Shown here one piece after another: positions 3,429 to 48,601 of a DNA stretch of 64,000 nt; the first letter of the stretch is position 1; the number at the start of each line of letters is the position of its first letter. The position numbers and the translations under genes were made by a program. The notes under the pieces were generated by a model. It was not told the DNA's origin. It did not search any database and saw only the letters and a program-made list of their open reading frames with translations. Origin of the DNA: Sphaerodactylus townsendi (taxonomy: Eukaryota); assembly GCF_021028975.2 (NCBI RefSeq), contig NC_059439.1:19902001-19966000 (forward strand). Reading direction: 5' to 3'.

Positions 3429-3998
3429 GCATAGCTTTTCTTGGTTCTGTGCATGGTCTGCCCTCATTCCTGCTTTTCTGTGGGGAGCAGTACCAGTGGT
3501 AGCAACCAAACGTCACATTTATTCAGGAGTTCTATCATAACAAATCGCCCTTAGTACAAATTGTAGTACAGACCAATAAACATTCCATCAGAATACATCA
3601 TAAGATATCAAAACAACATCTTGATTCAAGCGACAGCCGAAGGGAAGTGCTGAACCAGAACACTTGACTGGGGGGGGGGGGGGGGGGGGGGGGGGCACTG
3701 TAGTCCCATTTCACAGAGTGATAGTTTCTTCTGAATATCCCACCAATATTTCTGCTGGTTTCCTTCAAATTGTTCTTCCCCAAACGTGCTTCAATCAATG
3801 TAAATGTATTAACGTGCTTCGATTATATTCCAACTTTATGCCGCTTTATAAGTTCTTGGTACTGTAAAAGCAGCGTGAGCTGGTGAAACTTGGTGTGTGC
3901 TTACACAATTTTCCCTTGTGTGGTATACTGTTGTTGTTGTGCTGTGTACCCTCTGGGAACCTTCCTGACTGACCGTGGTTCTGTTCCCTTCCTCACAG

Positions 3999-4554
3999 CT
4001 GCAGCCCTTGCCTAGAGGAGACATCAACCCCATTGTCCATGGACATCTCGTGCTTCCCTGCACAAGAGCTCCCGAGCCCCGTGGCAGCCCCCACCAGCGG
4101 GGAACCCCGAAGCCAGCCCCTCCTCCCCGGACCGGAGCCAGAAAGCCTGGCCCCGCTCTCAGACATTCCCCCAGACCAGTCTCCAGTTGCCACAGGCCAG
4201 GAGGACGCCTCTCCCTCTCCAGCGCTCCCCGAACTTGTGGGGGATCCCTCCCACCCCGTTTCCCTCTCCCTCTATATGCTACGTCTCCCTCCCCCAGCTG
4301 GGGCCTACATCCAGAACGAGCACAGCTACCAGGTAGGCAGCGCCTTGCTGTGGAAGCGGCGAGCGGAGGCGGCCCTTGACGCTTTGGGCAAAGCCCAGCG
4401 GCAGCTGCAGGCCTGCCGGCGCCGGGAGCAGCGACTCCGCCTGCGTATCTGTGAGCTGCAGCGGGAACGGCGACCGCACAGTGCCGACGCCCACCGGCGG
4501 CTGAAGGAACACCTGCAGGTCTTTGAACTGCAGCTACTCAACGACCTGGAGTGA
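3999..4554 (+). CDS. THAP7: THAP7 last coding exon (HCF-1-binding motif and coiled coil)
   Basis: Acceptor ttcccttcctcacag ends at 3998. YMLRLPPPAGAYIQNEHSYQVGSALLWKRRAEAALDALGKAQRQLQACRRREQRLRLR matches the THAP7 C-terminus as I recall it; EHSY fits the D/EHxY HCF-1 motif. Stop TGA at 4552-4554. The zinc-finger exons were not found and presumably lie upstream of the window. Confidence 0.95.
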
Positions 4555-10844: not shown

Positions 10845-11031
10845 TGCTTCCGGCGGATCTGTCAACCGCTTTCACTTTCATGGTGCCGGAAAATATTCTA
10901 CAGTCACGTCTCTAGCTTTACAAGGACGGATGGGGAGGAGGAAGCTACTTCCTCCCTTTCCCAGTTCGTGGGACTTTCGTTTTCATTTGCTGAGTGCAGC
11001 CGAGGGAGAAGGGCCGCGAGAGGAGAGAGCG
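10845..11031 (+). promoter_or_regulatory. Candidate promoter and non-coding first exon of the PYD-B30.2 gene (IRF/ISRE, kB-like and ETS motifs)
   Basis: GCTTTCACTTTCA at 10868-10880 (reverse TGAAAGTGAAAGC, IRF-E). Inverted ETS pair GGAGGAAG-cta-CTTCCTCC at 10937-10955. GGGACTTTCG at 10970-10979 overlaps ACTTTCGTTTTC at 10973-10984 (ISRE-like). Consensus donor G|gtgagt at 11032; the PYD exon has an acceptor 21 nt before its ATG. Confidence 0.55.
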
Positions 11032-11329
11032 GTGAGTTTCCCCCAGTTCCTGACTTTTTCCAGCCTTCTTTTAAACTTCGTGGGGACCTAAGGATCAGGC
11101 AATCAGGGATCTAAAAGGATCTATTTCTGAAGCTCTGGGGAGCCACTGAGCATTCTTGACAGTTCAACGACATAAGGCAGCTTCGTTTAAAGGCATTCAA
11201 AGCGCATTACTTCCCGCACGCCACGTTTGTTTAGTCGCACTGTTACTTTGGCAGGTTCTAAGGCTGCTGGGGGCTGTCCTCTCTGGGATGGAAGGGTGGT
11301 GTAGTGTAGTGGTTAAGAGCAGGTGGGCT

Positions 11330-11725
11330 CAGAGGTGGGATCCAGCAGGTTCTCACAGGTTCCCGAGAGTAGGTTACTAATTATTTGTGTGTGCCGAGAG
11401 GGGGTTACTAATGGGTGATTTTGCCACGTGATTTTTGCCTTAGTTACGCCCCTCCTCTCAGCAGTAGCAGGCAGAACTTGAAGCAGTCTAGCAGGAGGTG
11501 CACCGGCGTGCGTGGCAGCCTGCGCCTGCATGCATTCGTTTCCCGCCCAAGGACCGGCGCAGCGGCTGCGTCCTTGCCACAGCCCCGGCCAGGAATGCCA
11601 CGCCCCGCCCCGAAATGCCCGGCCATGCCCCCGGAATGCCCCGCCCAGCCCCATTGGCGCTACGCCACAGTTTGAATCCCACCACCATGGGAACCTGTTA
11701 CTAAAATTTTTGGATCCCACCACTG
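11330..11725 (+). mobile_element. hAT-type MITE (CAGAGGTGGGATCC family) inserted in a SINE head
   Basis: TIRs CAGAGGTGGGATCC / GGATCCCACCACTG; TSD ggtgggct/ggtggact. Confidence 0.85.
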
Positions 11726-12410
11726 GGTGGACTCCTGCAGGGAGGCTAAGCAGTTCTGCAGCGATTGGCCAAATAGCTTCATGCCCACCACCAAGCTACT
11801 TCGCCTCAGGTGTCTCCCAGTGTGAGGCTGCACAGAATACCTACAAAGGTGAAAGCAGAGTTGCACTTACCTGTAGCTGCAGTTCATTGAGTGGGTTTCT
11901 GTGTAGACACACAGCCCTGCCTCCTACTGTGGGCTGCTATTTTTTTTACTGCACTACAACTGGCTTTCCAGGTGTTCCTTGTCTAGCTGGGGTGGCGGTA
12001 GGAGAACTGAGGGAATAGCATCACATGAACATTTGGACGAGAATCTTTTAGAGCCGCAGAGCAGGCAAAAAGCTTGAAAATCTTTCCGTGGCAGGCTGCT
12101 CAAGCGCAGTCCCAGTGTGTGTCTGGACAGAACCCCATTTGATGAGCTACCGTTACAGATAAGTGCAACTCTGTATTTATAATTGCTCTGTGAGTTTGTG
12201 GTACACATTCTGGTACTTGCCCTCAGTGATGACAGCAACATAGACAGAGCAGGCATTCCTTTAAAATATTTCCCAGCATCGCTTTCTCTTTCACAGCTTT
12301 CAGGCGCAGTATATTCATATTATTATGGTCATGTGATCAGAACTGAGCCCACTTTTTGGAGCACTCATAGGTGCTTTTCTCCACTCCAGAAACTTCGGCC
12401 TGGGCCCAAG

Positions 12411-12687
12411 ATGGCCGACACCGTCTGCTGCAAATTGGTGGACTACTTGGAAGAACTGACGGAGGAGGAATTCAAGAAGTTTAAGATGCACCTTGAGGAA
12501 TATCCGCTCGAGGAAGGCTACAAGCCCATACGGCGCTGTAAGACCGAGAAAGCCGGTGCCATCGAAATTGCCCGGCTCATGGTCAGAGCATATGAGGAGG
12601 CCATGGCGTTGCAGATGACAGTCAAAATCTTGGACAGGATAAACAAGAAGGATCTGTCAGCAAAAGTCAAGCAGGAGATGCCAGCCC
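12411..12687 (+). CDS. Pyrin domain (PYD) exon, NLRP3/NLRP12-like; first coding exon of a PYD-B30.2 gene
   Basis: Acceptor cttttctccactccag ends at 12389; Kozak aagATGG at 12411. MADTVCCKLVDYLEELTEEEFKKFKMHLEEYP...TEKA...INKKDLSAKVKQEMP has the PYD signature (LE.L...EFKKFK..L). Donor gtaagt at 12688, phase 1. Confidence 0.92.
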
Positions 12688-12800
12688 GTAAGTAAAAGGA
12701 GCCAGACCACAACAAAACTGTATTTTCTGAGGTTCTGTTCCTTCATAGGCCTTTAGTTCAGGTCACTATGGAACCTACCTGACTCATCAATATGTGTAGT

Positions 12801-13106
12801 GGAGCAGCAGTGGCGTAGGAGGTTAAGAGCTCATGTATCTAATCTGGAGGAACCAGGTTTGATTCCCAGCTCTGCCGCCTGAGCTGTGGAGGCTTATCTG
12901 GGGAATTCAGATTAGCCTGTACACTCCCACACACGCCAGCTGGGTGACCTTGGGCTAGTCACAGCTCTTTTGAGCTCTCTCAGCCCCACCCACCTCACAG
13001 GGTGTTTGTTGTGATGGGGGAAGGGCAAGGAGATTGTAAGCCCCTTTGAGTCTCCTGCTGGAGAGAAAGGGGGGATATAAATCCAAACTCTTCTTCTTCT
13101 TCTTCT
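12801..13106 (+). mobile_element. tRNA-derived SINE, Squam3-like
   Basis: Full-length copy with A/B boxes and (CTT)n tail. Confidence 0.85.
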
Positions 13107-14879
13107 ATCATACAAGAAATACATGGAATTTCACATGCTGTGCCACCTCCAGCTAGCTTGTTGTTGTTGTTGTTGTTGTTGTTATTGATACAAAAACAGT
13201 TATACACAGCAAACAAGATCAATATACTGGATTTTGTATTACATCACACGTCGGATATTATTTATTAAATTTATAGGCCGCCTCATCCCCGAAGGGCTCG
13301 AGGCGGCTCACAACACGGCTGTTTCAACAGCAAATTCATACGACATAAAAATAACCCATTAAAACTCAGCAGCAATTAATAATGAATAATTAAAACAGCA
13401 AGATTGTGTAACACGTATACACGTATACAGAGGCGCCCGATCTAAAGGCCAAAGGAAAAAAGAAAAAGAAAGAAGAAAGAAAGGGAGGAGATAGGCAGGG
13501 CCAAGATTGTTGTGCCAAGATTAAAGATGTCCTGGTTTAGAGCTAGATGGGGACAGACGTAATGCGAACACCAGTTGCCTTGTAGTCTCATCTTGGTCTC
13601 TTAAGACCTATATTGTCTGCTTGGACTGGCCTTTGGTCTCAGAAGATTTCAGGTGTTTTTGTTTAGAAGTAGTGTTGTATGAGCAATCCTTTGCCTCAGA
13701 GAGAGCAAAGCCCAGTCTTTTAAAACTGCACTATACATTTTAAAAATGTATAGTGATGCATAGACATGAATAGTGGGGTAGATAGGTTCTATTCTGTGTA
13801 GAGAATGGCACAAGACAGTGGATGGAGTGGGTAAGAATTGCCTCTTTTGGGGGGAGGGCACAACTGTTGTTCGTACTTCGAAATCCAAATCACACACAAA
13901 GACAGTAATTTGCCAAATAATAAGGTACTTATGTCATAGAAACTTCCGGGTTTTTTTTCCTATGCCGAATATTTACCCTTAAACCCTTCAGTTTCGGCAC
14001 CTGGCCTTTAAGCATCAGAATGAGATAAAATCTTTAGCATCATTATTTTTTTTAAAAAAAAAACCTATTTTCTGTATTGGATCTTAATTTAACCCCACTT
14101 TTTGTCAGTGGGGAGGGGGGTTCCGATTTATCTAGATAATTCTATCAAATGTTTCCAATTGTCCATGAACTTAAGTTATTTTCTTTAAGTAGCAAAGTTA
14201 ACTTGGCCATCTCGGCCAGCCTTCTTCACACACCATTCTTCAATTGTAGGAATAGCTGGGGTTTTCTATTTCTGCGCATTCAATATTCCTGTTACTGCTG
14301 TCATGTATAAAAACAAAATCTCCATGTTTTCTTTCTAGAGATCTGTCCCTAAGAATTGTGTAGCAAAGCAACAAGCACAGCCTGTTTATTGTTTTATGAG
14401 CTGATTGTCTGGAAATGCTCACCTTTTGGTTTTGAAACCAGATCTCTTATCCTGATTGCATCCACTTGTTAATCCGAGTGGTGCAAGAGACATTTCTCTT
14501 ATTTTGAAAACAATAGAAGCAGGGACATATGAAGCTGCCTCCTGCTGAGTCAGGTGATTGGTCTGTCAAAGCCACTATTGCCTTCTCTGACTGGCAGCAG
14601 CTCTCCACAGTTTCAGGAAGAGGTGTTCTCTCATGCCTAGTATCTGGTCCTTTTAACCATTGGATCTGTTGAGGACTGAACCTGGCCAATAAGATTCTCT
14701 AGCACTGAGACATGTTCCCTTTCCCTAAAAAGCAGAAAGATGTTGTGCGTGTGTGCGTAAGATATAGATAAATATACAAACACCATGTGTTTGTAGTATT
14801 TCAAATTAAATATTTAAAATATCTGTATTTGTATATGATATTTATTTCATTAACAAGAACAGCCATTTGTTTCTGACAG

Positions 14880-14990
14880 GCTTCTTTCAGCCTGCAAAGC
14901 CAGTGCCTGTGACCAAGGAAGAAAAACAAAAACAGAAAGAGAAGACAGAGTCGGATATGTATGAGCGGTTCTTCGGGACTCCAAAGAAAG
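14880..14990 (+). CDS. Charged linker exon of the PYD-B30.2 gene
   Basis: Acceptor tttgtttctgacag ends at 14879; donor AAG|gtctgt at 14991. 111 nt, phase 1/1, open: (R)FFQPAKPVPVTKEEKQKQKEKTESDMYERFFGTPKK. Joins both neighbouring exons in frame. Confidence 0.75.
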
Positions 14991-15026
14991 GTCTGTTTCT
15001 GGGGGGAAATTCAGAAGCTTCTAGGT

Positions 15027-15500
15027 CAGTGATGGCAAACCTTTTTGAGACCGAGTGCCCAAATTGCAACCCAAACCCCACTTATTTATCGCAAAGTGCC
15101 AACCTGGCAATTTAACCTGAATGCTGAAGTTTTAGTTTAGAAGAAACCGGTTGGCTCTCTTTTCCTCTGCCCCACCTGCTCGAGCAGGGACCAGCCTGCT
15201 CTAGCCACCAGCAAGTCCCACATGCACTGCTCTGTGCCTCTCTAGCATGTCTGCCTCCTCTGCGCCCGCCCCCCCCCCCAGGCAGCAGCCACCCGGAGCA
15301 CAGGCACCAGGCCCACCAGTCAACTTTCTTGTTCACCGTGGTGCACGCACGTCTTGCTCAGTGGCCCAGGCCAGCCTAGATGTGTGTGTGGGGGGGTGTG
15401 ATTTTCCGCCCCCCCACATGACAAACTCTGTGTGTGTGTGCCCACAGAGAGGGCTCCGAGTGCCACCTCTGGCACCCATGCCATAGGTTCGCCATCACTG
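15027..15500 (+). mobile_element. hAT-type MITE (CAGTGATGGC family)
   Basis: TIRs CAGTGATGGCAAACC / GGTTCGCCATCACTG; perfect TSD ttctaggt. Second copy at 52636-53113. Confidence 0.9.
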
Positions 15501-15716
15501 TTCTAGGTGGAGGTCACTGTAGAAAGGCTGCAGGCAACTTGGCCTTCCAAATGCATGTTAGCCCTCTGTTTTGAGAAACATGCAGTTCGATCTCGTCAGA
15601 CATTGGTCCTTGGATGGAAGACCATCAAGGAAAGCTCTGCCGGTGAAGGCAATGGTAAATTATGGCCAATTGTGCATGGAGCATCTCCTTGCCTCAAACA
15701 GCATTCCTTTGGCTCA

Positions 15717-16017
15717 GAGAGCCAGCGTGGTGTAGTGGTTAAGAGCAGGTGGATTCTAATCTGGAGAAACGGGTTTGATTCCTCACTCCTCCACCTGAGT
15801 GGCAGAGACGTGTCTGGTGAACCAGATGTGTTTCTGCACTCTTCCATTCCTGCTGGGTGACCTTGGACTAGTCACAGTTCTCTCTGAACTCTCTCAGCCC
15901 CACCTACCTCACAAGGTATCAGTTGTGGGGAGAGGAAGGGAAAGGAGCTCGTAAGCCCCCTTAAGTCTCCTTACAGGAGAGAAAGGTGGGGTATAAATCC
16001 AAACTCTTCTTCTTCTC
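15717..16017 (+). mobile_element. Squam3-like SINE
   Basis: Full-length copy; its 3' part is tandemly duplicated (15899-16182). Confidence 0.8.
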
Positions 16018-16182
16018 TAGATTTTCAATTATGCAACTGACCCACCTACCTCACAAGGTATCAGTTGTGGGGAGAGGAAGGGAAAGGAGCTCGTAAGCCC
16101 CCTTAAGTCTCCTTACAGGAGAGAAAGGTGGGGTATAAATCCAAACTCTTCTTCTTCTCTAGATTTTCAATTATGCAACTGA
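15899..16182 (+). repeat. Perfect 142-bp tandem duplication
   Basis: 15899-16040 equals 16041-16182 (SINE tail plus unique flank). Confidence 0.9.
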
Positions 16183-16921
16183 TCCAATGTATTCTCTGGG
16201 ATGGATTTTCAATTATGGAACTGTTCCTAAACCACCACACTTTCTGAAGGAGAATCCCCACATTTTCCAATTCCCTGACCATTTTTTTCCCTCTTTGCAT
16301 GGAAAGCGGAGCAGAACACCTTCTTCTATTTCTACTTCTCACTTGCCTTGAAAGCCCCTTGCCGAGGTCACCGTAAGTTGGCTGCAGCTTGCAAGCACTT
16401 TGTGCACACAATCCGGATCCCATTGCAGGACTGAGGAAAAGACTTCTCAAACTGCTGGCCATCTTGCTGAAGCATTCAGCAGCAGCAAAAAGAAAATCAA
16501 GTAGTAAACCACAGAGTAGAAGCAGTGAAAACCGGAAGCAGAGCCATTGAGGCCTGGAAAGAGACGATTGTTAGTGTTTGGCACCTAAAACAGCAGTGGG
16601 GTGTCACGGGCATAATGGTGGGAAGAGAGCTGCCACCGGTTCCTCGCAAGCACAAAGCCCTCAAGCAACCAACAGAGAAAACCAAATGTTTTCCCTCCAG
16701 AATGGCCAGCATTTACAGTGGCTTGCTATGTCGGGAAGAGCATTTTTTTAAAGGTGCATATAATAATAATAATTGTGTGGCATCAAGTTGTGACTGACTC
16801 ATGGTGACTCCAGAACTATGGGGTTTTCAAGGCAAGAGATGACCAGCAGAGGGGATTGCCAATACCTTCCTCTGCATAACACCCCCATTCTTTCTCAGTG
16901 GTGTCCCATCCAAGAACTAAT

Positions 16922-17160
16922 CATAAGAACATAAGAACAAGCCAGCTGGATCAGACCAGAGTCCATCTAGTCCAGCTCTCTGCTACTCGCAGTAGCCCAC
17001 CAGGTGCCTTTGGGAGCTCACGTGCAGGATGTGAAAGCAATGGCCTTCTGTGGCTGTTGCTCCCGAGCACCTGGACTGTTAAGGCATTTGCAATCTCAGA
17101 TCAAAGAGGATCAAGATTGGTAACCATGAATCGACTTCTCCATAAATCTGTCCAAGCCCC
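16922..17160 (-). mobile_element. CR1 3' tail in the last intron of the PYD-B30.2 gene
   Basis: cataagaacataagaacaagccagctggatcagacc..., same family as 45563 onward. Confidence 0.85.
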
Positions 17161-17622
17161 TAATCATGGCCAACCTCACATAAGCTTTAAAGTTCTGATG
17201 AGATTTCACTACTGGGGGCTACTCAAGCTGCTAAAACCTGCATATATACATTTATGCAAATACACATTCATCCTTCACCTTACAAGAAGATTTTTAAACA
17301 ACTGCTTTGTAGAATGGGGTGTACATGTGAGTGTTAGGGACGTCACTGATGCTAGCCAAGCAGCATGTGCAGTGTCCGTTTTTCCCATGCCCATCTTGAA
17401 ACCAAACCAAACCTCCATAGAACATTTTTTTTAAAACTTCCACCGGAAAGAGAGAAAGTGTATATAGGCTTGGAAGGTAGCACGGATATTATCAAACACC
17501 TCCACCACTGATAAAATAGTACATTCGTCTCCACCAATCCTAGTCTGATTTGAAAATATGTAAACAATAGTTTCTTAAGCTGATGAACATGGAAACACTC
17601 CCCTTTTTCCCTGTCTCTTTAG

Positions 17623-18143
17623 TGGAGGTAACACTGGATCCCAAAACAGCCTTCCCCACGCTTATCCTTTCTGAAGACCGGAAGAGCGTCCATCTGGGAG
17701 AAAGAGCCCAACCTCTGCCTGATAACCCTGAGCGATTCAATTTCTTACCCTGTGTTCTGGGAGCCGAAGGCATCACCTCTGGGACCCTGGAATGGGTGGT
17801 GAACGTGGGCAAGGCCAAAAGCTGGTCCATCGGTGCCGTTCGGGAATCAATTGATAGAAAATGGTACCTCTACATAACAGCCGAACAGGGGTTTTGGGTA
17901 CTGCAGCTGCATGAAGGAGAGTACACAGTCTCAACTACCCCATTCACCAACCTTTTCTTGTGGAAGTCGCCACAGAGAATCAGAGTGCATCTGGACTACG
18001 ACCGTGGTATCCTCTCCTTTTATGATGGTGACTCCATGGAGCACCTCTTTAGCTTCAACTATCCATTTTCCGAAAGGATGTTTCCCTTTTTTCAGGTCTG
18101 GGATACTGAGATCCCCTTGCAAATATGCCCCAGTGATTCCTAG
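17623..18143 (+). CDS. PRY-SPRY (B30.2) terminal exon of the PYD-B30.2 gene
   Basis: Strong acceptor ccctttttccctgtctctttag ends at 17622, phase 1. Motifs VTLDPKTA.PTLILSEDRKSV, LPDNPERF..LPCVLG.EG.TSG, GFWVLQL and RIRVHLDYDRGILSFYD. Stop TAG at 18141-18143; AATAAA at 18462-18467. Confidence 0.93.
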
Positions 18144-18959
18144 AGATAACATAATCAAGTCATTGCCAAAGGCTTTCATGGACGGAAACAACTGAGCGGT
18201 GTGGGTTTCCCGGGCTGTGTCTGATGGCTTTTGCTCTTGTTTCGCCTGCATCTATGGCTGGCATCTCCAGAGGCATGTCATAATAAGATGGGCTATGATG
18301 TATGGCCGAACAGCCTCATATCTTTGTGGCACCGGGATCATACACTTTATCAGTTTTCGCCAGCATGGCCGAGGTGGCCACGCTGGAAGGGGCTGATGGG
18401 ACTTGTAGTCCATAACATCTGGCGTGCCAAAGGTTCGCCACCACAGGCTAAGGAGAGGAGAAATAAATCTTATCGTGACCTGAAGAGATGCAGGTGAGAT
18501 AGTAGGGGGAGGTGAGATAGTAGGAGCAAAAACTACCAGACTATTATATGTAGTCAGTATAATAGTGGGAGGAGAGTTGCCACCACAGAAATCCTTCCAG
18601 TTCCTTCCAACCCTATGAAAACTCAGTAGGGTTTCTGATAATGGTAATATTGGAGCATGTATGTAGAAACTGTCCTGAGTCCTGCTTTCTTGGGGGAAAG
18701 GCAGGATAAAATCTCAAAACTAAAATAAACTAATGATTAGCAGTCCCTCTTGTCTTATGTTATGCACAAAGTTTTTGCATGTACTATTCATTGCTGCAAA
18801 TCACTGTGCGGAATAATTACAGGGATATGTGGACCAGCCCGTATATCACAACTTCTATACCCCTTCTGCACAGGCAGAATAATGCACTTTCAATCCACTT
18901 TCAATGCACTTTGAAGCTGTGCGGAAAAGCAAAATTCACTTGCAAACAATTGTGAATGT

Positions 18960-19248
18960 GGGGTGCTGTGTGGTTTCCGGGCTGTATGGCAAGATGTGGG
19001 GTGCTGTGTGGTTTCGGGCTGGCATGGCGTTCCTGGCAACATTCTCTCCTGGCCGTTTCACCTGCATCTGTGGTTGGCATCTTCCAAGGAGGATCTGATT
19101 ATAACAAGATCCTCTGAAGATGCCAGCCACAGGGCTGGCAAACGTCAGGAGAGAATGTTCAGATCCTCTGAAGATACTCAACCGGACCATACAGCCCGGA
19201 AACCACACAGCACCCCAGTGATTCCAGCCGTGAAAGCCTTCGACAATA
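18960..19248. mobile_element. Degenerate inverted Penelope termini inserted in a MITE
   Basis: Same arms as 8901-9138, with several indels. Confidence 0.7.
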
Positions 19249-20169
19249 AATTGTGAATGTGAATTGGAAGTGCATTATTCTGCCTGTCATGTATAAAAGG
19301 AAGGGGGGTATAATGCCTGTCTCTTTGTAGAAGCGCAAATCCCACTGTTTTTGACATCATACTAGAATTTATAGTTTAGACTCATTCTGTTAGGCTTAAC
19401 ACGTTTAAAAGAAACTGGCAGTTTGAGGATGTGCCCAGCAATGACAGCCTTAGTTGTACATCAAAAATATTTTTGGTCTGTTCATGTAAAAGTCGATTTT
19501 ATTATAAATATACAAATAAGTAAACACATAATATTTTCTAATTTGTTTTTCTTCTTCTAAGATTGAAATATATCTTGTCAAAATATTTTAGAGCTAGATT
19601 TCTGTCAGTAGCACATTAGAGACCAACAAAATTTTCAAAATATAATCTTTCAAGAGTCAAAATTTCCTTTAAGAACAGAATGCTAGATGGGATAAAAGAA
19701 GATAGAGTGGGGAGCTCTCTCTCAAAGTGGTATTACATTTATATGTTAATTTATTAAAGTATCAAGTTCCATCCGGTTGTTGTGTTTTATTTTCATGGTT
19801 AGGTAATTTACCTGTTTATAATTGTTGTGGGTTTTTTGTTTTCCTGTTTATCTTTTTCTTCCCTATATTTTGAGAAAATAAGTATATTTTTATGCAAAAG
19901 CAACTCAGCATCCCTGCGTATCTTTATGTCGTCATTGTGCAACTCTCTTATTTAAGAATTTATACCTTTTTAAAACCCATCAATTCCTCATTCTTCATCA
20001 GTAGACCTAAAAAGAACACATTTGTTCCAAGGTAAGTATGCACAGAATGGCACCCCGACAGAGCCATCCTATGCAGCGCTACACTGTTCTTGAGTCCATT
20101 GACATCAACAGTCTTAGAAAAGCAACACTCTATTTAGGAGGACACTAGCCAACCCTCCCACAATCAATA

Positions 20170-20468
20170 AGAAGAAGAAGAGGAGTTTGGATTTATATCC
20201 CCACTTTCTCTCCTGTATGGAGACTCAAAGGGATTTACAATCTCCTTTCCCTCCCCCACCCCCCCAACAACACCCTGTGAGGCGGGTGGGGCTGAGAGAG
20301 CTCCAAAGAACTGTGACTAGCCCAAGGTCACCCAGCTGGCATGAGTTGGAGTGCGCAAGCTAATCTGGTTCACCAGGTAAGCCTCCACAGCTCCAGTGGC
20401 AGAGCAGGGAAACAAACCTGGTTCTCCAGAATAGAGTGCACCTGCTCTTAACCTCTACACCACGCTGG
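20170..20468 (-). mobile_element. Squam3-like SINE (unit-B copy at about 28953-29250)
   Basis: Same family, directly downstream of the OR stop codon. Confidence 0.8.
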
Positions 20469-20528
20469 AAAACTCTGTCCACTTCACCCAACCACAGTGT
20501 TACAAATGCACAGAGTGATCATTGCCTT

Positions 20529-21464
20529 TCATTGCCGTCTCCTTCTGATTTTAGACAAGGCGCCTTTGACTTCCTTGTTCCTGAGGCTGTAAATGAGAGG
20601 ATTGGAGTAATGGAGTGTAACCAATTGCATAAAAGAAAGTAGTATCTTGTCACGGGTTGAACTACAGAGTTGCGTTGGGACTCAAATAAGCAAAGATAGC
20701 TGTGCCATAGCAGAGGGTGACCACGGTCAGGTGGGAGGTGCACGTGGAGAAGGCTCGGTGCCGGCCTTCTGAAGAGCGGATGCGCAAGATGGCTCCGATG
20801 ATATACACATAGGAAAGCATGACTAGACTACAGGGGATCAACAGCACAAGGACGCCAGCCACCATCAGTGAAATATCATTGACGAAAGTGTCCGAGCATG
20901 ACAGCTTGACCACAGCCAGGACTTCACACACAAAGTGATTGATGGTATTGAAGTGGCAGAAATGAAGGCACATGGTGAACGCAGTCTGCACCCCGGCATT
21001 GAGGAAGCCAACGAACCAGGAAGCGATTGCCAGTTGGATGCACACTCTCGGGCTCATGATGACCTTGTAATGCAGGCAAGTTGGCAGAGCGGCGACGATC
21101 TGTCGTAGGCCATGGCTGCCAACAAGATGAACTCGGTGCTGCCCAGGAACAAAGAGATGCAGAGCTGGGCCATGCATTGGTCAAAAGAGATAGTTTTGTG
21201 GCTGGTCAGGCAGTGGGCCAGCAACTGGGGCACCACACTTGTTGTGTAGCAGATGTCCAGGAAAGAGAGGTTGCTCAGGAAAAAGTACATAGGGCTGTTG
21301 AGCCGGGATGCGGCGCGGATGGTTGCTATGATGGTTTTATTGCCTGCCAGGGTGATGAGATACATGAAGAAAACCACCCCAAAGAGCCATAGATTAGTTC
21401 CTCGCACTCGAGAGAATCCCAAAAACACAAACTCTTGGACGCTTGTCTGATTGGGGGGTCTCAT
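20529..21464 (-). pseudogene. Olfactory receptor, class II family-2-like, frameshifted copy
   Basis: Same gene as 29312-30241 (MRPPNQTSVQEFVFLGFS..., MAYDR, KLSC, STCTSHL), but with several indels near 21075-21100 and 20600-20680 that split it over several ORFs. Confidence 0.85.
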
Positions 21465-21859
21465 CGTAGAGCTGAACGAGTGGAAACAGAATGGAAGTAT
21501 AACGCCTGGCTGGTACCTTGTGATTCGAATAGGTAGCCAATCTCCGTGGGATCTGGAAACCCTCCTGGAATTCGCCAGCTGATCTTCAGAAGACCAAGAT
21601 CAGTTCTCTAGGAGAAAATGGTGCTCGAGGGGTGACTTCATGGCATCACACCATGGGAACAGGAAAATAGGTTTGGAATATTATATTTGATACAAAAGAA
21701 TAAGGGATCTATATAAACTGAAAAGCAAGGAGTCTCCCTCTCAGTAGTAAAAAGTAACTGGTCAGAAAGTTACAAAGCAGGGAAGATCTTATCATATCAC
21801 TAAGGAATTGATAACATCCCGGTATAGGACTAAAAAGGCATGAGATAAAGCGTGTCTTA

Positions 21860-22002
21860 GGCTCATTCCGCACATGCAGAATAATGCACTTTCAAACTGC
21901 TTTCAGTGCTCTTTGAAGCTGTGCGGAATGGCAAAAATCCGCTTGCAAACAGTTGTGAAAGTGGTTTGAAAACGCATTATTTTGCGTGTGCAGAAGGGGC
22001 CC
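21860..22002. mobile_element. Palindromic MITE (GGCCCCTTCCGCACA family, Harbinger-like)
   Basis: TIR-bounded hairpin. Relatives at about 18860-19308, 27821-28099, 30586-30725, 46808-46957, 53511-53630, 54474-55098 (interrupted by a gap and a SINE) and 55256-55394. Confidence 0.7.
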
Positions 22003-22164
22003 TACAGTCCTAAAGGCATCCTCAGTCAAATAAGAGAGAATAAGATAATAAACACAGAAAGGAAGATGTCAAACGTTAGAGGAGAGATAAATCTAATCAG
22101 ATAATTAAAATGTGTTTTTCTATAGTTTAATGAACTCTGAAATGATAGTGAATACGAAAGGTAG

Positions 22165-23294
22165 TGTGGAGACGGGCCAGAATGTGTATAAAATTGTTTA
22201 ATCAAGGAAGATTGATTCAAATGAACCAGAGATTGCAATGAATCAAAATGGTGCTTCTGTGTAAGTGACCAGCAGAAACCTGCATGTTTGCAAAAAAAGG
22301 TCAAAAAGCCATGTTACCAGGTTTCTCAGTGAATATGCAGGCCAGCAAGATAACATCTTTGACATCTTGGCACTGAGGGCCTACGTGACAGCAGACAAGA
22401 TGCATTTTATATGACCTTGTTTTCTTGGTTAGGTTTTTGGGTTAGAACTAGCTAAACCAATGTGATTAGTTAAATTACAAAGTGGTTTTTCTATATAGTT
22501 AAATGAGCACAGAGAAATAATAATGGGAGATATTCACATGTATTAGTATTTCACTATAATTCTATTTTCTTAGAATCATTGTATAATTGTTAGAATCATG
22601 TTTTAACATTTCATGCTGGGGAATTGAAGAGAGGTTTTATGACCCAAAGGAATCCTGCATTGCCCTTTGGCGCATCTCTCTGAGCCAAACTAAAAGCAAA
22701 GCGAGTTTTCTTGAAGACAGTGAGCTAGTCCCTTTATATGGCAGTCCCCTTTGTATATGCGTATTAGGAGGCCATAAACCAACAGCACATGTAGTGTTTG
22801 AGTAACAGAATATACGTAGGAAATATAGGCTGCCTTCATGTGACCAGTTCTGACCAATTAGATTTTTTTAAGGTATATGGACTATAATACGTGAGAGTAG
22901 GGGAAAGGATTTTATGTGACGTCTTTATTTCTGCATCTATAAGAATTAAGACTCTTCCTCTAATTTCGCCATGCAAGCCTCCTTCTGGAGAGCCACCCAG
23001 GAGAAGTTGCAATCTCCTGTAACATTCTAAACATTGGATTAGCGCCTCTCCTTAGGGAGAGAGTCACTCTTCTGTAACTTATCTGTATTCTGTATAACGT
23101 TCTGAATTCTGGGTCTATATCACTCCGAGTGGGCACTGGGAGTGTTCACACTCTGTAACTCTGCTATATTCTGCCAAGTAAAACTGTCTGTTTGTTTCTC
23201 TAATATCAGATGCTCTTGTTTTTTATTTCTAGCTTAGTTTTTCTTTAAAACTAATCTTGCTGTGTAGGACCAGAGAAGCGGCTCTGGCCCCACA
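22165..23294. mobile_element. Solo LTR (1130 bp)
   Basis: TGTGG...CCACA termini; 4-bp TSD gtag (22161-22164 and 23295-23298). The empty site aaaggtaggcaaaag is present in unit B near 30881-30895. Confidence 0.88.
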
Positions 23295-24373
23295 GTAGGC
23301 AAAAGATGTATTCTAGGCATAAATATTGTTACAATCATTTTCACCTTTTTAGTAAATAAGATGTATGTGAAATCATGTTATCCTGAAGAAGTTCCTCTTT
23401 GGACATCGCCCCCCCCAGGAATGTTGTCCGATTATTTGGAGTGAAACTTAGGAAGGCTGGAATTCAGTTTTATTGCCTTATTAATGGAAGAGACAACAAG
23501 CCAAAAGAGCAGACGGAAATTCCAGCTCTGTGTCAAACTAGCAAATTTGATTTTAAGGTGAAGGGCAGGTATGTAAGGAAATCATGGTGTGTGCATTTTT
23601 GAAAGTATAAGAAGAGAGGTCTTTTGTCTGGTTGGGTGTGACACTCTCAGAGACAGAGAGAGAGCTACCACCCTGTATGTTAGATGATGGATCTCACAGC
23701 AGTAAAAAATATTTTCCTCTCTTAAAACCTGTGGTCTTTGGGCATTCTTTTTCTTCACCCATCTTTTAAACCGTAACTGAGCTAGGTTAGGTTGAATTCT
23801 CACCCCACAATACAATGCTGAGGTCCTTCCCCTACCCAGACTCCCCCGCCCCCCAGAATATCCAGGATTTTCTTAACCCAGAGTTGGCAACTTTTGACTT
23901 GAGCAGTAAACCTCGTCTAGCAACATTCTCTCCCATGTGTGTTATATCTAAACTATATCATAGTTAGGACCTCGAAATTCCCTGCGCCTGTTTCGGGATT
24001 TTTTAGTTTAAATTTTTTATTATTTAGTGACACACATTAGCCAAAAGAAAAAAAGATACAAAAAAGACATCACCGCGAAAAACGAAACTTGATGAAGGGA
24101 AACATCAATAGAACAAAATTAATTATGTTACACTTTTCAATGTATTTTGTTGTTTACACAGTTAAAGAAGATTTTTTTTTTAATGCTTTGTTGAAGCCTA
24201 AGCCTTGGATGCTGTATTAAATCACGCCTTTCTCGGCGCCATAAAGCTAGAGAAGGTTTTAATATTTTTTAAACTGTTTTAAATGATCTCAGTGTTTCTA
24301 AATGGAGCTATTTTGGTCATGTGTTAAGAACATAAGAACTAGCCTGCTGGATCAGATGAGAGTCCATCTAGTC

Positions 24374-24823
24374 CAGGGGTAGGGTACCTGCTTGACTCGA
24401 GCCACACATGTTGCCTCTTCTGCCCTTTGCACTGTGGCTCCCGCGTGCCGAAGCTGTCAAGTCTCCATCGCTTGCCCATCCTGTGGTAGCAGGGCGGGAG
24501 GCATTCAACTGCCCACGGTCGGTTACGCTGCTGGCATGTTTCCTCTCGCCCCCCCCCCCATTGAAGCTGGTGGGCTTTCTGGTGGTCGGCAAGGCTGCTG
24601 CTAGCTTCATCGCTTGTCAGTCCTCCGGGTGGCAGGGTGGTGTGCAAATCCATGCTTTCAGAATGAGAAAGCGGAGTAAAGGTAAAAAAACAACTCTATA
24701 TATATAGTGTTATCTTTATTTTTTGAAATGTCAAAAAAATTATTTGCGGCTCCAAGTGTTTTTTTTTCCCCGTGGAAAACGGGTCCAAATGAGCTCTTTG
24801 AGTGTTAAAGGTTCCCACCCCTG
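24374..24823. mobile_element. hAT-type MITE private to unit A, inserted in a CR1 tail
   Basis: TIRs CAGGGGTAGGG / CCCACCCCTG; perfect TSD atctagtc; empty site in unit B near 32099-32106. Confidence 0.88.
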
Positions 24824-25517
24824 ATCTAGTCCAGCACTCTCTGCCACCAAGAGTGGCCCCACCAGGTGCCCGTGGGGATTCACATTATGGGAAACATCAG
24901 GAGCCAACCGAGTGTGATAGGGAAGGGGCTGCCTACAAGTCCGATAGATAAATTAACATAATATTTCTCATGTGTCAACTTTGGCACAAGCAAAATAATA
25001 TTTAAAATGACATGATGAAACAGAAGATGAGTTTTCAGAGCGTGGGCTGGCAAAAGACATAGACTCCAAATAGTGCAAAACATCTGCAATCCCTTTATTT
25101 TTCTTGCCACTCTAATTTGATTTGTGAATTTGTCCAACAGTCAGATTCCACACATTTGTAGGAGATGATGATGTAAGCTGTTTTGGGCCCTCGTTGGGGA
25201 GAAAAGTAGGTTTTAAATATCTAAATAAGTTGGGGAATCCACAGATGAGCACCACCTTGCACAGGTAGAATCGCCTTCTGCTCCTACAAGGGACAGCTTT
25301 GGATCCCAACCAATTTATCTTGGGAAACCATCTGCCCCAGGGTGTGACTCATTGAGGTGGGATGGAGATCCCAGCATCCTGGTTTGCTGAAGCAATTGTA
25401 GTGGGCTTCACCTTTTACCAGCCACCCCCAAGATCATCCTTTCATCCCGCAAATTATGGGTGAACATTCATTACAATTCATTAAACAGTTTTTCAAAACC
25501 ACACAGCAGCAGCAGCA

Positions 25518-25821
25518 GAAGAAGAAGAGTTTGGATTTATATCCCCCCCCCCCCTTTCTCTCCTGTAAGGAGACTTAAGGTGGCTTGCAAGCTCCTTTCC
25601 CTTCCTCTCCCCACAACAAACACCTGGTGAAGTAGGTGGGGCTGAGAGAGTTCTGAAGAACTGTGACTAGTCCAAGGTCACCCAGCAGGAATGTAGGAGT
25701 GTAGAAACACATCTGGTTCACCAGAAAAGCCTCTCCACCCACTCAGGTGGAGGAGTGGGTATTCAATCCCAGTTCTCCAGATGAGAATCCACCAGCTCTT
25801 AACCATTACACCACACTGCTC
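25518..25821 (-). mobile_element. Squam3-like SINE (unit-B copy at about 32787-33088)
   Basis: Same family. Confidence 0.8.
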
Positions 25822-26827
25822 TTACGGGCATAACAGCTGCAAACCCAGACAGAATCATGACTACAATTGATATTTCCAGCTTCTTCTGTGTGGGATGGAA
25901 GGGTTCATACATACCTATGATATCAAATGTCAGGAGTGTACCTCAGCCACAATTTCTGCAGTGAGTCCTTCTTCAGTTCTGTGCTGGCTGTACTGTTAGA
26001 TCCTACTGAGGTACAATGCAGACTGTAACGAACCAGAATTCTCCTCTTCTGGAGTCTTCTACAGCTCTTTAGGTTGGATCCAGCCAACCTTGCTTGTTGT
26101 GAAAAAGAAAGGAGGGTCTCCTTTTGACCTCCCCCCAAATGCTATGTTAGGAATCACAAGAACTGCATGTTGTGGGGAACAGAGCAACAACAAGGAAAAG
26201 AACTGGGTCGGACGGAGTAAAATATCTGGCTGGTTCCTGCCCATGGATTCATATGCTGCACAAGATAATTGTTGTCATTGCACTGCCAAGAATTGGGAAG
26301 GAAGCAGCAACTTTTCATAAAGAATTAAAGGGAAGGTGTTTCCTCGGTTGGACTCCAGCTCTGCCCCATGGCTTACTTTGACTGGTATGCAAGCAAGGAG
26401 ATTTACTCAGATAACGTTAAAGAATATTTGAGCTGTTGCCAATGAACATATTGTGCCTAGAAGATAATTGAGTTGCAGTTCCTATTCTCCAGTGGAAAAT
26501 TAACTATGAAGTCTCTTGGGTTACAAACGGCAGGGCCAAAAGTTTTTGAAGTCAACTCAGATTTGTGCCAAAGGTCCAGTTTAAAGGGATTAGATTCTAC
26601 AACCCCATCCTGCTAAACTGGATCGTAAGATTTTTTTGCAACCAAGCCTTTGTCCAATGGCTTTTTGCAATAGGGAAAGATTTCCTTGGATGGAAGAACT
26701 TATTATTATTGGTTGATTTCAGTCAATGATGATAATAATAAGTTCTTCATTATTATCATTATTGATTGACTTCACAGCTGCCAGTTCTTTAGCTGGGTGT
26801 TGGCCTTTCATTACAATTCCAGTCTCC

Positions 26828-27109
26828 TGGAACCTCTACATAACAGCCGAACAGGGGTTTTGGGTACTGCAGCTGCATGAAGGAGAGTACACAGTCTCAA
26901 CTACCCCTTTCACCAACCTTTTCTTGTGGAAGTCACCACATAGAATCAGAGTGCATCTGGACTACGACCGTGGCATCCTCTCCTTTTATGATGGTGACTC
27001 CATGGAGCACCTCTTTAGCTTCAACTATCCATTTTCCGAAAGGATGTTTCCCTTTTTTCAGGTCTGGGATACTGAGATCCCCTTGCAAATATGCCCCAGT
27101 GATTCCTAG
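26828..27109 (+). pseudogene. Duplicated 3' half of the SPRY exon (truncated B30.2 copy)
   Basis: Near-identical to 17862-18143; from LYITAEQ onward the only amino-acid difference is SPQR vs SPHR. Lacks PRY and the first SPRY strands; begins at the tandem-duplication junction. Confidence 0.88.
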
Positions 27110-27264
27110 GAATAACATAATCAAGTCATTGCCAAAGGCTTTCATGGACGGAAACAACTGAGTGTTGTGGGTTTCCCGGGCTGCATCGGATGGCTTTTGC
27201 TCCTGTTTCACCTGCATCTATGGTTGGCATCTCCAGAGTCATGTCATAATAAGATGGGCTATGA

Positions 27265-27410
27265 CAGTGGTGGCGAACCTTTGGCACTCCAGATGTGGTG
27301 GACTACAATTCCCATCAGCCCCTGCCAGCATGGTCAATTGGCCATGCTGGAAGGGGCTGATGGGAATTGTAGTCCATAACATCTGGAGTGCCAAAGGTTC
27401 GCCACCACAG
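27265..27410. mobile_element. Short palindromic hAT MITE
   Basis: CAGTGGTGGCGAACC.../...GGTTCGCCACCACAG; TSD ggctatga. A garbled counterpart lies at about 18299-18446. Confidence 0.85.
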
Positions 27411-27924
27411 GGCTATGAGGAGAAATACATCTTATCGTGACCTGAAGAGATGCAGGTGAGATAGTAGGGGGAGGTGAGATAGTAGGAGCAAAAACTACCA
27501 AGCTATTATATGTAGTCAGTATAATAGTGAGAGGAGAGTTGCCACCACAGAAATCCTTCCAGTTCCTTCCAACCCTATGAAAACTCAGTAGGGTTTCTGA
27601 TAATGGTAATATTGGAGCATGTATGTAGAAACTGTCCTGAGTCCTGCTTTCTTGGGGGAAAGGCAGGATAAAATCTCAAAACTAAAATAAACTATTGATT
27701 AGCAGTCCCTCTTGTCTTATGTTATGCACAAAGTTTTTGAATGTACTATTCATTGCTGCAAATCACTGTGCGGAATAATTACAGGGATATGTGGACCAGC
27801 CCGTATATCACAACTCTATGGCCCCTTCTGCACAGGCAGAATAATGCACTTTCAATCCACTTTCAATGCACTTTGAAGCTGTGCGGAAAAGCAAAATTCA
27901 CTTGCAAATTCACTATTATAAAGA

Positions 27925-27967
27925 TCCTCTGAAGATGCCAGCCACAGATGAAGGCGAAACGTCAGGA
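27925..27967 (+). ncRNA. Minimal hammerhead ribozyme motif in a Penelope terminus (27921-28050)
   Basis: tcctCTGAAGAtgcc...ggcGAAACGTCagga with an intact core. The unit-A counterpart near 19110-19150 is damaged. Confidence 0.72.
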
Positions 27968-29311
27968 GAGAATGCTGCTAGAACACGGCCATACAGCCCG
28001 GAAACCACACAGCACCCCAGTGATTCCAGCCGTGAAAGCCTTCGACAATAAATTGTGAATGTGAATTGGAAGTGCATTATTCTGCATGTGCGGAAGGGGT
28101 ATATGCCTGTCTCTTTAGAAGTAAATCCCACTGTTTTTGACATCATACTAGAATTTATAGTTTAGACTCATTCTGTTAGGCTTAACATGTTTAAAAGAAA
28201 CTGGTAGTTTGAGGATGTGCCCAGCAATGATAGCCTTAGTTCTACATCAAAAATATTTTGGTCTGTTCATGTAAAAGTCAATTTTATTATAAATATACAA
28301 ATAAGTAAACACATAATATTTTATCATTTTTTTCTTCTAAGATTGAAATATATCTTGTCAAAATATTTTAGAGCTAGATTTCTGTCAGTAGCACATTAGA
28401 GACCAACAAAATTTTCAAAATATAATCTTTCAAGAGTCAAAAATTTCCTTTAAGAACAGAATGCTAGATGGGATAAAAGAAGATAGAGGGCTCTCTCTCA
28501 AAGTGGTATTACATTTATATGTTAATTTATTAAAGTATCAAGTTCCATTCGGTTGTTGTGTTTTATTTTCATGGTTAGGTAATTTACCTGTTTATAATTG
28601 TTGTGGGTTTTTTGTTTTCCTGTTTATCTTTTTCTTCCCTATATTTTGAGAAAATAAGTATATTTTTATGCAAAAGCAACTCAGCATCCCTGCGTATCTT
28701 TATGTCGTCATTGTGCAACTCTCTTATTTAAGAATCTCTTTGTATACCTTTTTTAAACCCATCAATCCCTCATTCGTCATCAGTACACCTAAAAAAAACC
28801 ACATTTGTTCCAAGGTAAGTATGCACAGAATGGCACCCTGACAGAGCCATGCTATGCAGTGCTACACTGTTCTTGAGTCCATTGACATCAACAGTCTTAG
28901 AAAAGCAACACTCTATTTAGGAGGACACTAGCCAACCCTCCCACAATCAATAAGAAGAAGAGGAGGAGTTTGGATTTATATCCCCACTTTCTCTCCTGTA
29001 TGGAGACCCAAAGGGTTTTACAATCTCCTTTCCCTCCCCCCCCCCACAACAAACACCCTGTGAGGCGGGTGGGGCTGAGAGAGCTCCAAAGAACTGTGAC
29101 TAGCCCAAGGTCACCCAGCTGCCATGTGTTGGAGTGCGCAAGCTAATCTGGTTCACCAGGTAAGCCTCCACAGCTCCAGTGGCGGAGCAGGGAAACAAAC
29201 CTGGTTCTCCAGAATAGAGTGCACCTGCTCTTAACCTCTACACCACGCTGGAAAACTCTGTCCACTTCACCCAACCACAGTGTTACAAATGCACAGATTG
29301 ATCATTGCCTT

Positions 29312-30241
29312 TCATTGCCGCCTCCTTCTGATTTTAGACAAGGCACCTTTGACTTCCTTGTTCCTGAGGCTGTAAATGAGAGGATTGAGCATGGGTGTAA
29401 CCACTGCATAAAAGAAAGCAAGCATCTTGTCACGGTTGGACACAGAGTTGCCTTTGGGACTCAAATAAGCAAAGATAGCTGTGCCATAGCAGAGGGTGAC
29501 CACGGTCAAGTGGGAGGTGCACGTGGAGAAGGCTCGGTGCCGGCCTTCTGAAGAGCGGATGCGCAAGATGGCTCCGATGATATACACATAGGAAAGCATG
29601 ACTAGAATACAGGGGATCAACAGCACAAGGACGCCAGCCACCATCAGTGAAATATCATTGACGAAAGTGTCCGAGCATGACAGCTTGACCACAGCCAGGA
29701 CTTCACACACAAAGTGATTGATGGTGTTGAGGTGGCAAAAGTGAAGGCACATGGTGAACGCAGTCTGCACCCCGGCATTGAGGAAGCCAACGAACCAGGA
29801 AGCGATTGCCAGTTGGATGCACACTCTCGGGCTCATGATGACCTTGTAATGCAAGGGGTGGCAGACGGCGACGTATCTGTCGTAGGCCATGGCTGCCAAC
29901 AGGATGAACTCAGTGCTGCCCAGGAACAAAGAGATGTAGAGCTGGGCCATGCATTGGTCAAAAGAGATAGTTTTGTGGCTGGTCAGGCAGTGGGCCAGCA
30001 ACTGGGGTACCACACTTGTTGTGTAGCAGATGTCCAGGAAAGAGAGGTTGCTCAGGAAAAAGTACATAGGGCTGTTGAGCCGGGGATCGATGCGGATGGC
30101 TGTTATGATGAGCGCATTGCCTGCCAGGGTGATGAGATACATGAAGAAAACCACCCCAAAGAGCCATAGATTAGTTCCTCGCACTCGAGAGAATCCCAAA
30201 AACACAAACTCTTGGACGCTTGTCTGATTGGGGGGTCTCAT
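29312..30241 (-). CDS. Olfactory receptor, class II (family 2-like, OR2D/OR2F-type), intact 309 aa
   Basis: Intronless 7TM ORF with GN, LNSPMYFFLSNLS, MAYDRYVAVCHPLHY, KLSC, RAFSTCTSHLTVV and PMLNPLIYSLRNKEVK. N-glycosylation site NQT. Confidence 0.96.
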   Translation of the reverse strand: MRPPNQTSVQEFVFLGFSRVRGTNLWLFGVVFFMYLITLAGNALIITAIRIDPRLNSPMYFFLSNLSFLDICYTTSVVPQLLAHCLTSHKTISFDQCMAQLYISLFLGSTEFILLAAMAYDRYVAVCHPLHYKVIMSPRVCIQLAIASWFVGFLNAGVQTAFTMCLHFCHLNTINHFVCEVLAVVKLSCSDTFVNDISLMVAGVLVLLIPCILVMLSYVYIIGAILRIRSSEGRHRAFSTCTSHLTVVTLCYGTAIFAYLSPKGNSVSNRDKMLAFFYAVVTPMLNPLIYSLRNKEVKGALSKIRRRRQ

Positions 30242-31620
30242 CGCAGAGCTGAATGAGAGGAAGCAGAATGGAAGTATAACGCCTGGCTGGTTCCTTGTGA
30301 TTCGAATAGGGTTGCCAATCTCCTGGTGGGATCTGGAAACCTCCTGGAATTACAGCTGATCTTCAGAAGACCAAGATCAGTTTCCTTGGAGAAAATGGCA
30401 GCTTCAGAGGGGGGGACTTCATGGCATCACACTATGGGAACAGGAAAATAGGCTTGAATATTATATTTGATACAAAAGAATAAGGGATCTATATAAACTG
30501 AAAATCAAGGAGTCTCTCTCTCTCAGTAGTAAAAAGTAACTGGTCAGAAAGTTAAAAAGCAGGGAAGATCTTATCATATCACTAAGGCTGATTCCGCACA
30601 CGCAAAATAAGCACTTTTAAGCTGCTTTCAGGGCTCTTTGAAGCTGTGCGGAATGGTAAAATCCACTTGCAAACAGTTGTGAAAGTGGTTTGAAAACGCA
30701 TTATTTTGCGTGTGCGGAAGGGGCCCTACAGTCCTAAAGGCATCCTCGGTCAAATAAGAGGGACTAAGATAATAAACACAGAAAGGAAGTTGTCAAAGGT
30801 TAGAGGAGAGATAAATCTAATCAGATAATTAAAATGTGTTTTTCTATAGTTTAATGAACTCTGAAATGATAGTGAATATGAAAGGTAGGCAAAAGATGTA
30901 TTCTAGGCATAAATATTGTTACAATCATTTTCACCTTTTTAGTAAATAAGATGTATGTGAAATCATGTTATCCTGAAGAAGTTCCTCTTTGGACATCGTC
31001 CCCTTCAGGAATGTTGGAAACTGATTATTTGGATTGGAACCAGGAAGGCTGGAATTAGTTTTATTGCCTTATTAATGGAAGAGACAACAAGCCAAAGAGC
31101 AGAGGGAAATTCCAGCTCTGTGTCAAACTAGCAAATTTGATTTTAAGGTGAAGAGCAGGTATGTAAGGAAATCATGGTGTGTGCATTTTTGAAAGTATAA
31201 GAGAGGTCTTTTGTCTAGTTGGGTGTGACTCTCTCAGAGACAGAGAGAGAGCTCACCCTGGGTTAGATGATGGATCTACGCAGTATAAAAATATTTTTTT
31301 TTCTCTTAAAACCTGTGTCTTGGGCATTCTTTTCTTCACCCATCTTTTAAACCGTAACGGAGCTGGGTTAGGTTGAATTCTCACTCCACAATACAATGCT
31401 GAGGTCCTTCCCCTACCCAGACTCCCCCCCCCCCCCAGAATATCCAGGATTTTCTTAACCCAGAGTTGGCAACTTTTGACTTAAGCAGTAAACCTCATCT
31501 AGCAACATTCTCTCCCTATGTGTGTTATATCTAAACTATATCATAGTTAGGACCTCGAAATTTCCTCGCCTGTTTCGGGGATTTTTAGTTTAATTTTTAT
31601 TATTTAGTGACACGTTAGCC

Positions 31621-48448: not shown

Positions 48449-48601
48449 CCATAAGGTGTACAATTCCTCAGAAAAAGTAAACAAACGTTCTACCGATAGC
48501 CTGTTACCAGAGACACGAGTGACCCTATTGCAAAATTGTCCCTCTTTGTTTTCTAACCCTTTCCCCCATTCAGACGCAAGACATGATCTTTGTTAGAGCG
48601 G

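Follow-up and report, generated by a model that had tools for sequence, protein, structure and literature searches.

Two families of inflammasome genes frame the locus described here, namely pyrin (MEFV/TRIM20) and the NLRP genes, together with the TRIM genes that supply its current database names. Pyrin first appears in mammals, according to the available text of PMC11258412. Its B-box and coiled coil are needed, and its B30.2 domain is an inhibitor rather than a ligand sensor, as set out in the available part of PMC10039897. The status of the non-mammalian genes called 'NLRP3' is less settled, and whether they are real orthologues is debated in the accessible portions of PMC11258412 and bioRxiv 10.64898/2026.04.26.720791; the main text of the latter, in the portion available, makes no mention of SPRY or B30.2. 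Related inflammasome literature, likewise available in part, includes PMC10445537 and PMC13076529. In a literature search that covered subscription journals thinly, we found no description of a gene like the one reported here or of its evolution. The gene joins a PYD, a short linker and a B30.2 domain in the gecko Sphaerodactylus townsendi. It is a real, old, unnamed tetrapod gene, and likely an overlooked immune sensor rather than pyrin.

Gene structure, transcript and surroundings

The PYD-B30.2 gene lies on C15, at positions 10930-18143 on the plus strand of the 64,000-nucleotide stretch of DNA that was analysed (the window). Its PYD exon (12390..12687, +) contains an ATG at 12411 and extends for 277 nt from that codon's first base, that is 92 codons plus 1 nt, and a GT donor in phase 1 follows position 12687. 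The linker exon (14880..14990, +) had been noted as short, in phase 1/1 and basic at its end, and so it is: 111 nt between AG and GT, with PKK as its last residues. The terminal exon (17623..18143, +), which encodes the B30.2 domain (PRY/SPRY), is preceded by a pyrimidine tract and AG, has V-T-L-D beginning 5 nt after its phase-1 acceptor, and reaches its stop at 18143. Counted from the ATG at 12411, the protein has 302 aa. Pfam identifies PYRIN (E = 1e-25), PRY (5e-23) and SPRY (5e-18) and finds no match in the linker, and the AlphaFold model (pLDDT 70, linker <50) bears out only the two folds. An additional upstream exon (10930..11031, +) with an in-frame ATG is used in the database model P0001, where it adds 41 residues together with 12390-12410. 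When it is included, the joined exons give exactly the 343 aa of P0001, which NCBI names 'TRIM39-like' of Sphaerodactylus townsendi. Because most orthologue models begin at the PYD, this exon is probably 5' UTR or an optional extension, and it is absent from the placed pieces of spliced contigs.

Four runs from one study were compared with the locus; X1-X14, whose word share was small, and the raw-read runs X19-X21 were left out. In two of the four, contigs place the PYD, linker and B30.2 exons at adjacent record positions (X16 record 10 and X17 record 16), and the remaining two cover the introns of the gene. The library type of X16 and X17 is unrecorded, but RNA is implied because their contigs skip the introns. 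Contigs that join the three exons in this way show that the fusion is genuinely transcribed rather than an artefact of the gene model. The locus is an intact, spliced PYD-linker-B30.2 gene. Searches of its introns and flanks by tblastn and profiles found no remnants of RING, B-box, coiled-coil or NACHT sequences. A decayed TRIM coiled-coil exon was suspected at about 16400-16600; neither method gave a TRIM match there, and its first 70 bases are a repeat.

The surroundings of the gene contain further copies of its last exon. A partial B30.2 duplicate at 26828..27908 (+), 94% identical to 17862-18946, holds only the 3' half of the exon, without the PRY, and is part of a local segmental duplication rather than a second gene. 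That duplication (window 17862-34090, 93-94% identity) comprises 17862-21805 copied to 26828-30587, 23295-24033 to 30885-31613 and 24824-26826 to 32099-34090, and it carried along an olfactory-receptor gene whose frame is intact at 29315-30349 and broken at about 20665-21599. A second olfactory-receptor pair, inverted, lies at 36566-37539 and 48533-49505. These neighbours resemble the synteny of the eutherian NLRP3 locus, a resemblance that we discounted because such clusters are too common. Upstream of the gene, positions 3973-4554 (+) are presumably the last exon of a THAP7-like gene, identified by motif and with no Pfam match. At a distance of 219 kb upstream there is a decayed copy of the 5' part of the B30.2 exon and its upstream intron (L046:5400-5800; C15:19.7006 Mb), beside a gene that we take to be LRRC4-like.

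Family distribution and the B30.2 domain

We use "family" for the PYD+PRY+SPRY orthologues of the gecko gene. A PYD search assigned 19 of 117 candidates to the family, all 19 with the three domains, from geckos, a lacertid, an amphisbaenian, a cordylid, a skink, an agamid and snakes. Searches with representatives and a family profile added tuatara, iguanians, Varanus, turtles and two caecilians among the matches listed (120 of 294). Within these listed matches (120 of 294) the three domains occur together in at least six turtles identified to species, alongside a partial Pelodiscus model. Bird, crocodilian, mammal, frog and salamander members were not among the same 120 of 294, which is weak evidence of absence. 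An Atlas feature search returned the family's own cluster, with 68 members. Snakes have two paralogues that differ in linker length, long in the first and short in the second (P0007-P0019, P0178, P0182-P0184), many of them with E at the position of NLRP3 K23. The gene is thus represented by orthologues among squamates, tuatara, turtles and caecilians.

A 58-row B30.2 tree, assembled without MEFV, unites all 15 family members in a clade (100/98) within which branching follows species order from caecilians through turtles and tuatara to squamates. Because this clade spans caecilians to squamates, the fusion predates the caecilian-amniote split. Its sister (96/87) is a clade containing gecko TRIM7 (L008) and reptile TRIM39/RFP-like genes, and the PYD-B30.2 proteins of fish fall in two separate fish clades. 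Of the 23 gecko B30.2 exons that could be parsed, out of 28 loci, 21 begin in phase 1 and the apparent phase 0 of the remaining two is due to a codon that finishes with AG; the acceptor position 5 nt before the first strand is common to the PYD-B30.2 gene and gecko TRIM B30.2 exons. Carried on a single phase-1 terminal exon and nested inside the TRIM B30.2 radiation, the domain has the features of a C-IV TRIM B30.2, and the tree and the gecko exon phases together bear out the original prediction of a TRIM-type terminal exon. Pairwise scores place the gecko domain nearer to BTN3A1 (146 bits) and TRIM7 (139) than to pyrin (123). Gecko TRIM7 scores 246 bits against human TRIM7, 149 against BTN3A1 and 116 against pyrin; because it has the same pyrin offset, we see no special tie between the B30.2 of the PYD-B30.2 gene and that of pyrin. 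Pyrin's B30.2 may evolve fast.

The fusion is one of several independent fusions of this kind, and exon phases make such events easy, since PYD exons in the gecko close in phase 1, the phase in which its B30.2 exons open. A second model from Sphenodon, which is partial (P0131, 152 aa), joins an ASC-type PYD directly to the start of a PRY, possibly as a further independent fusion or as a true pyrin relative. In other proteins (P0031 from Rhineura, P0115, P0150/P0153 and P0080) the partner of the PYD is, respectively, a RIPK-like kinase, a URGCP GTPase, FIIND or a linker-histone domain. Shuffling of PYD exons is thus frequent outside mammals.

Affinities of the PYD and linker

Scored against solved structures, the gecko PYD is closest to NLRP3 (69.4 bits), followed by NLRP4 (56), NLRP9 (42.5), NLRP12 (42), pyrin (40.5) and ASC (36.5). 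The expectation that it would resemble NLRP3 and NLRP12 more than MEFV or ASC therefore holds for NLRP3 but not for NLRP12, which does no better than pyrin. Mean identity is 42% to NLRP3 versus 33% to ASC-type PYDs. The turtle family PYD gives 65.2 bits with NLRP3 and 32.7 with pyrin, and the caecilian PYD 53.3 and 48.9. At 20 alignment columns the amniote family agrees with NLRP3, unlike ASC-type PYDs, and caecilians share 4 of these 20. By structure scores and PYD trees alike, the domain is an NLRP3-type PYD.

The PYD trees are built on 92 columns only, and the groups tested were named after the first tree had been seen. They omit MEFV, NLRP1, NLRP6 and the NLRPs of birds, frogs, marsupials and monotremes. 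Four NLRP3-type rows, the NLRP12-like row and some ASC-like rows are unnamed sequences labelled by tree position or motif; the NLRP12 row we take to be NLRP12 by motif only. In a 72-row tree the amniote family and mammalian NLRP3/12/4 form a clade (96/97), and a 39-row LG tree gives the branch uniting the amniote family and mammalian NLRPs 82/93; the caecilian PYD is unplaced in both of these fish-containing trees. With fish and long branches out, a 32-row tree reads (caecilians,(sauropsid family + mammalian NLRPs)), with support of 96/90 and 100/99, and on these sequences the mammalian NLRP PYDs occupy the position that a mammalian orthologue would be expected to take. An AU test rejected a single clade of mammalian and alligator/turtle NLRP PYDs (p-AU 0.013 and 0.011). 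A NACHT tree of 15 rows (one dropped, with no Walker A match) groups the NLRPs of gecko, turtle, coelacanth and mammals together (100/99) without resolving the order among them. The coelacanth NLRP PYDs are of generic type, and the platypus NLRP3-like PYD is given as 'Pyrin_ASC-like' in the available text of PMC11258412. Two further gecko loci may be recorded: an NLRP-type NACHT exon (L060/L074; C2:74.73 Mb) has no PYD in the 40 kb upstream, and L005 (C3:157.797 Mb) is a divergent, long-branched PYD exon for which 30 kb of examined sequence contain no extended reading frame of NACHT type.

The linker exon had also been ascribed to an NLRP3-type gene, and here the comparison does not sustain the claim. 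The gecko linker of 37 aa is predicted to form a charged, low-confidence helix followed by an amphipathic segment and a basic end. Linkers across the family likewise combine a charged stretch with an amphipathic segment and basic residues at the end, an arrangement reminiscent of the helix-Cys130-polybasic module of NLRP3 exon 3. The gecko linker lacks the Cys that 13 of 25 long family linkers have within their last 12 residues. Compared with NLRP3 exon 3, it gives local-score z values of 1.6 and -0.2, and right-anchored values of 2.7 and 1.8 that become 1.8 and 1.3 once the final KK is fixed. The likeness is matched by 20/500 and 60/500 shuffles and is not significant, and fish TRIM segments preceding the B30.2 score as high. 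When turtle PYD plus linker is aligned to full-length NLRP3, the alignment ends at the end of the PYD. The linker is short in one snake paralogue and differs in caecilians. Intron phase, which had been offered as evidence for the same source, carries little information in that all three of the other gecko PYD exons likewise end in phase 1.

Origin, function and comparison with known systems

One reading of these data is that the gene is a non-mammalian MEFV/TRIM20 orthologue, set apart either by an internal deletion or by a phospho-linker, B-box and coiled coil that were inserted later. The first and last domains are the same, the caecilian PYD scores 48.9 bits with pyrin against 53.3 with NLRP3, and pyrin is found only in mammals (available text of PMC11258412), where no family member is among the matches listed. 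However, pyrin is never the best PYD match (40.5 vs 69.4 bits in gecko, 32.7 vs 65.2 in turtle), the B30.2 prefers BTN3A1 and TRIM7 (146 and 139 bits vs 123) with the same offset in gecko TRIM7, the introns hold no B-box or coiled-coil remnants, and PYD-B30.2 fusions are recurrent, with two separate fish groups in the B30.2 tree. We consider orthology to pyrin highly improbable, and a pyrin deletion product is unlikely on these comparisons. A search for MEFV that used the caecilian protein against longer proteins gave 2 of 1763 candidates, both of them TRIMs of cartilaginous fish. Grouping with MEFV was assessed by pairwise scores only, by which neither PYD nor B30.2 is closest to it; with pyrin the best match of neither domain, a convergent likeness, as originally predicted, is most likely. 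The choice of donor is harder. The original prediction derived the PYD from an NLRP3-type gene, and a stem-tetrapod or amniote NLRP paralogue with an NLRP3-type PYD might have donated or replaced the 5' exons of the PYD-B30.2 gene, surviving as mammalian NLRP3/12/4 and being lost or unsampled in sauropsids. Family-only PYD monophyly, without mammals, is not rejected (p-AU 0.14 and 0.20), the linker layout resembles that of NLRP3 (phase 1/1 over 36-39 aa, with an amphipathic segment, basic residues at the end and Cys in 13/25 long linkers), and reptile NLR genes were often gained and lost (available text of bioRxiv 10.64898/2026.04.26.720791). Nonetheless, the sauropsid NLRs sampled carry another, ASC/pyrin-type PYD: the alligator 'NLRP3-like' PYD scores 66.5 bits with pyrin, 60 with ASC and 35.9 with NLRP3, and the PYD of the gecko C3 NLR scores 42.8 with NLRP6 and 20.4 with NLRP3. 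Eleven of 151 PYD proteins favour the family profile by >10 bits (5 family-type, 6 NLRP3-type), and the only two that bear a NACHT are named squirrel and mole NLRP3. Squirrel NLRP3 matches three NLRP-type NACHT exons in the gecko genome, and its PYD matches solely the PYD-B30.2 gene, in a search that scores best candidates only. The likeness of the linker to NLRP3 falls short of significance (20/500 and 60/500 shuffles), and the helix-Cys130-polybasic membrane linker of NLRP3 exon 3, reported as eutherian-only in the available part of the same preprint, is far younger than the gene. A lost NLRP donor is possible in our judgement, but doubtful.

The fusion itself goes back at least to the caecilian-amniote split, and flow in the reverse direction, from the PYD-B30.2 gene into mammalian NLRPs, fits the trees no less well. 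The simplest reading is a PYD swap in the mammalian line with the PYD-B30.2 gene as donor, a proposal that we place just short of even and somewhat ahead of the lost NLRP donor. The amniote stem would be where NLRP3-type letters arose in the family PYD, whose lineage would also include the PYD of mammalian NLRP3/12/4. In its full form, which we advance tentatively, the proposal is that mammalian NLRP3, NLRP12 and NLRP4-type genes took their PYD exon from a PYD-B30.2 gene that mammals then lost, that reptile 'NLRP3' is not NLRP3 at its signalling end, and that the living relative of the NLRP3 PYD would be a B30.2 inflammasome sensor, so far undescribed, in reptiles and caecilians.

As a whole explanation we slightly favour an origin in which a PYD exon was joined in phase 1 to a B30.2 exon of TRIM7/TRIM39 type, independently of pyrin, with the product acting as a minimal inflammasome sensor. 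The B30.2 would bind a repeated cytosolic ligand and cluster the molecules, the clustered PYDs would nucleate ASC polymerisation, and ASC would activate caspase-1, which would cut GSDMA and IL-1beta; caspase-1 cleaves GSDMA in reptiles (available text of PMC11258412). Mutants at NLRP3 E15, K23/K24 and M27 block ASC nucleation most fully (available text of bioRxiv 10.1101/2021.11.25.470035). The gecko PYD is identical to NLRP3 at E15, K23/K24, M27 and R43 and has lysines for R80/R81, although E15 and K23/K24 are not specific to the NLRP3 type because they are common in ASC-type PYDs too. A gecko ASC-like CARD exon lies on C15 (L077:8979-9260, 31.869 Mb), 67% identical to skink ASC, and one contig splices it to 382 bases from upstream. 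The surrounding 100 kb of this assembly (59 kb upstream, 40 kb downstream) yielded no PYD exon, which may reflect misassembly, a distant exon or a CARD-only gene. The protein could also be a targeted decoy or regulator, resembling POP1/POP2 with a B30.2 address and capping or dampening ASC filaments. It has no oligomerisation module or coiled coil, its charge is changed at two NLRP3 positions (D60 is R in the gecko PYD, and K23 is E in 11 of 33 amniote family members), and pyrin's own B30.2 is inhibitory (available text of PMC10039897). We find such a role unlikely given a slow-evolving PYD that retains most NLRP3 nucleation residues and a gene kept since early tetrapods, with two paralogues in snakes. 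Read as a sensor, the conserved gene, hidden by TRIM39-like and butyrophilin-like names, would add a candidate to the inflammasome repertoire of reptiles and amphibians. It would also offer a testable origin for the PYD of NLRP3, and the family illustrates repeated convergence on the pyrin layout.

In comparison with known systems, the protein shares with pyrin an N-terminal PYD and a C-terminal B30.2 in a single cytosolic protein, but at 302 aa it has none of the parts that lie between them in pyrin according to the available text of PMC10039897, namely a linker phosphorylated at S208/S242, a B-box and a central helical, coiled-coil scaffold. Unlike pyrin, its gene has an NLRP3-type PYD and a B30.2 that is not specially close, and it is found in non-mammalian tetrapods. 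With mammalian NLRP3, and with the PYDs of NLRP12 and NLRP4, it shares a PYD clade and a PYD exon followed by a short, basic-ended phase-1/1 exon, whereas FISNA, NACHT and LRR are missing and the linker is not detectably homologous and has no Cys near its end. TRIM7, sauropsid TRIM39-/RFP-like and butyrophilin B30.2 domains form the sister B30.2 clade and use the same phase-1 terminal exon, but the PYD-B30.2 protein has no RING, B-box, coiled coil, Ig or transmembrane part, and the database names 'TRIM39-like', 'TRIM7-like' and 'butyrophilin-like' reflect the B30.2 domain alone. Teleost 'pyrin-like' proteins of the form PYD-(coiled coil)-B30.2 have the same end domains, and some are as short (313-318 aa). 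Their B30.2 domains nest inside the clades of fish TRIM39/21-like and A33/NF7 genes, and a fish clade also takes in their PYDs; because both domains sit in fish clades, these proteins are independent fusions. Judged by the features that define the pyrin, NLRP and TRIM families, the PYD-B30.2 gene stands outside all three.
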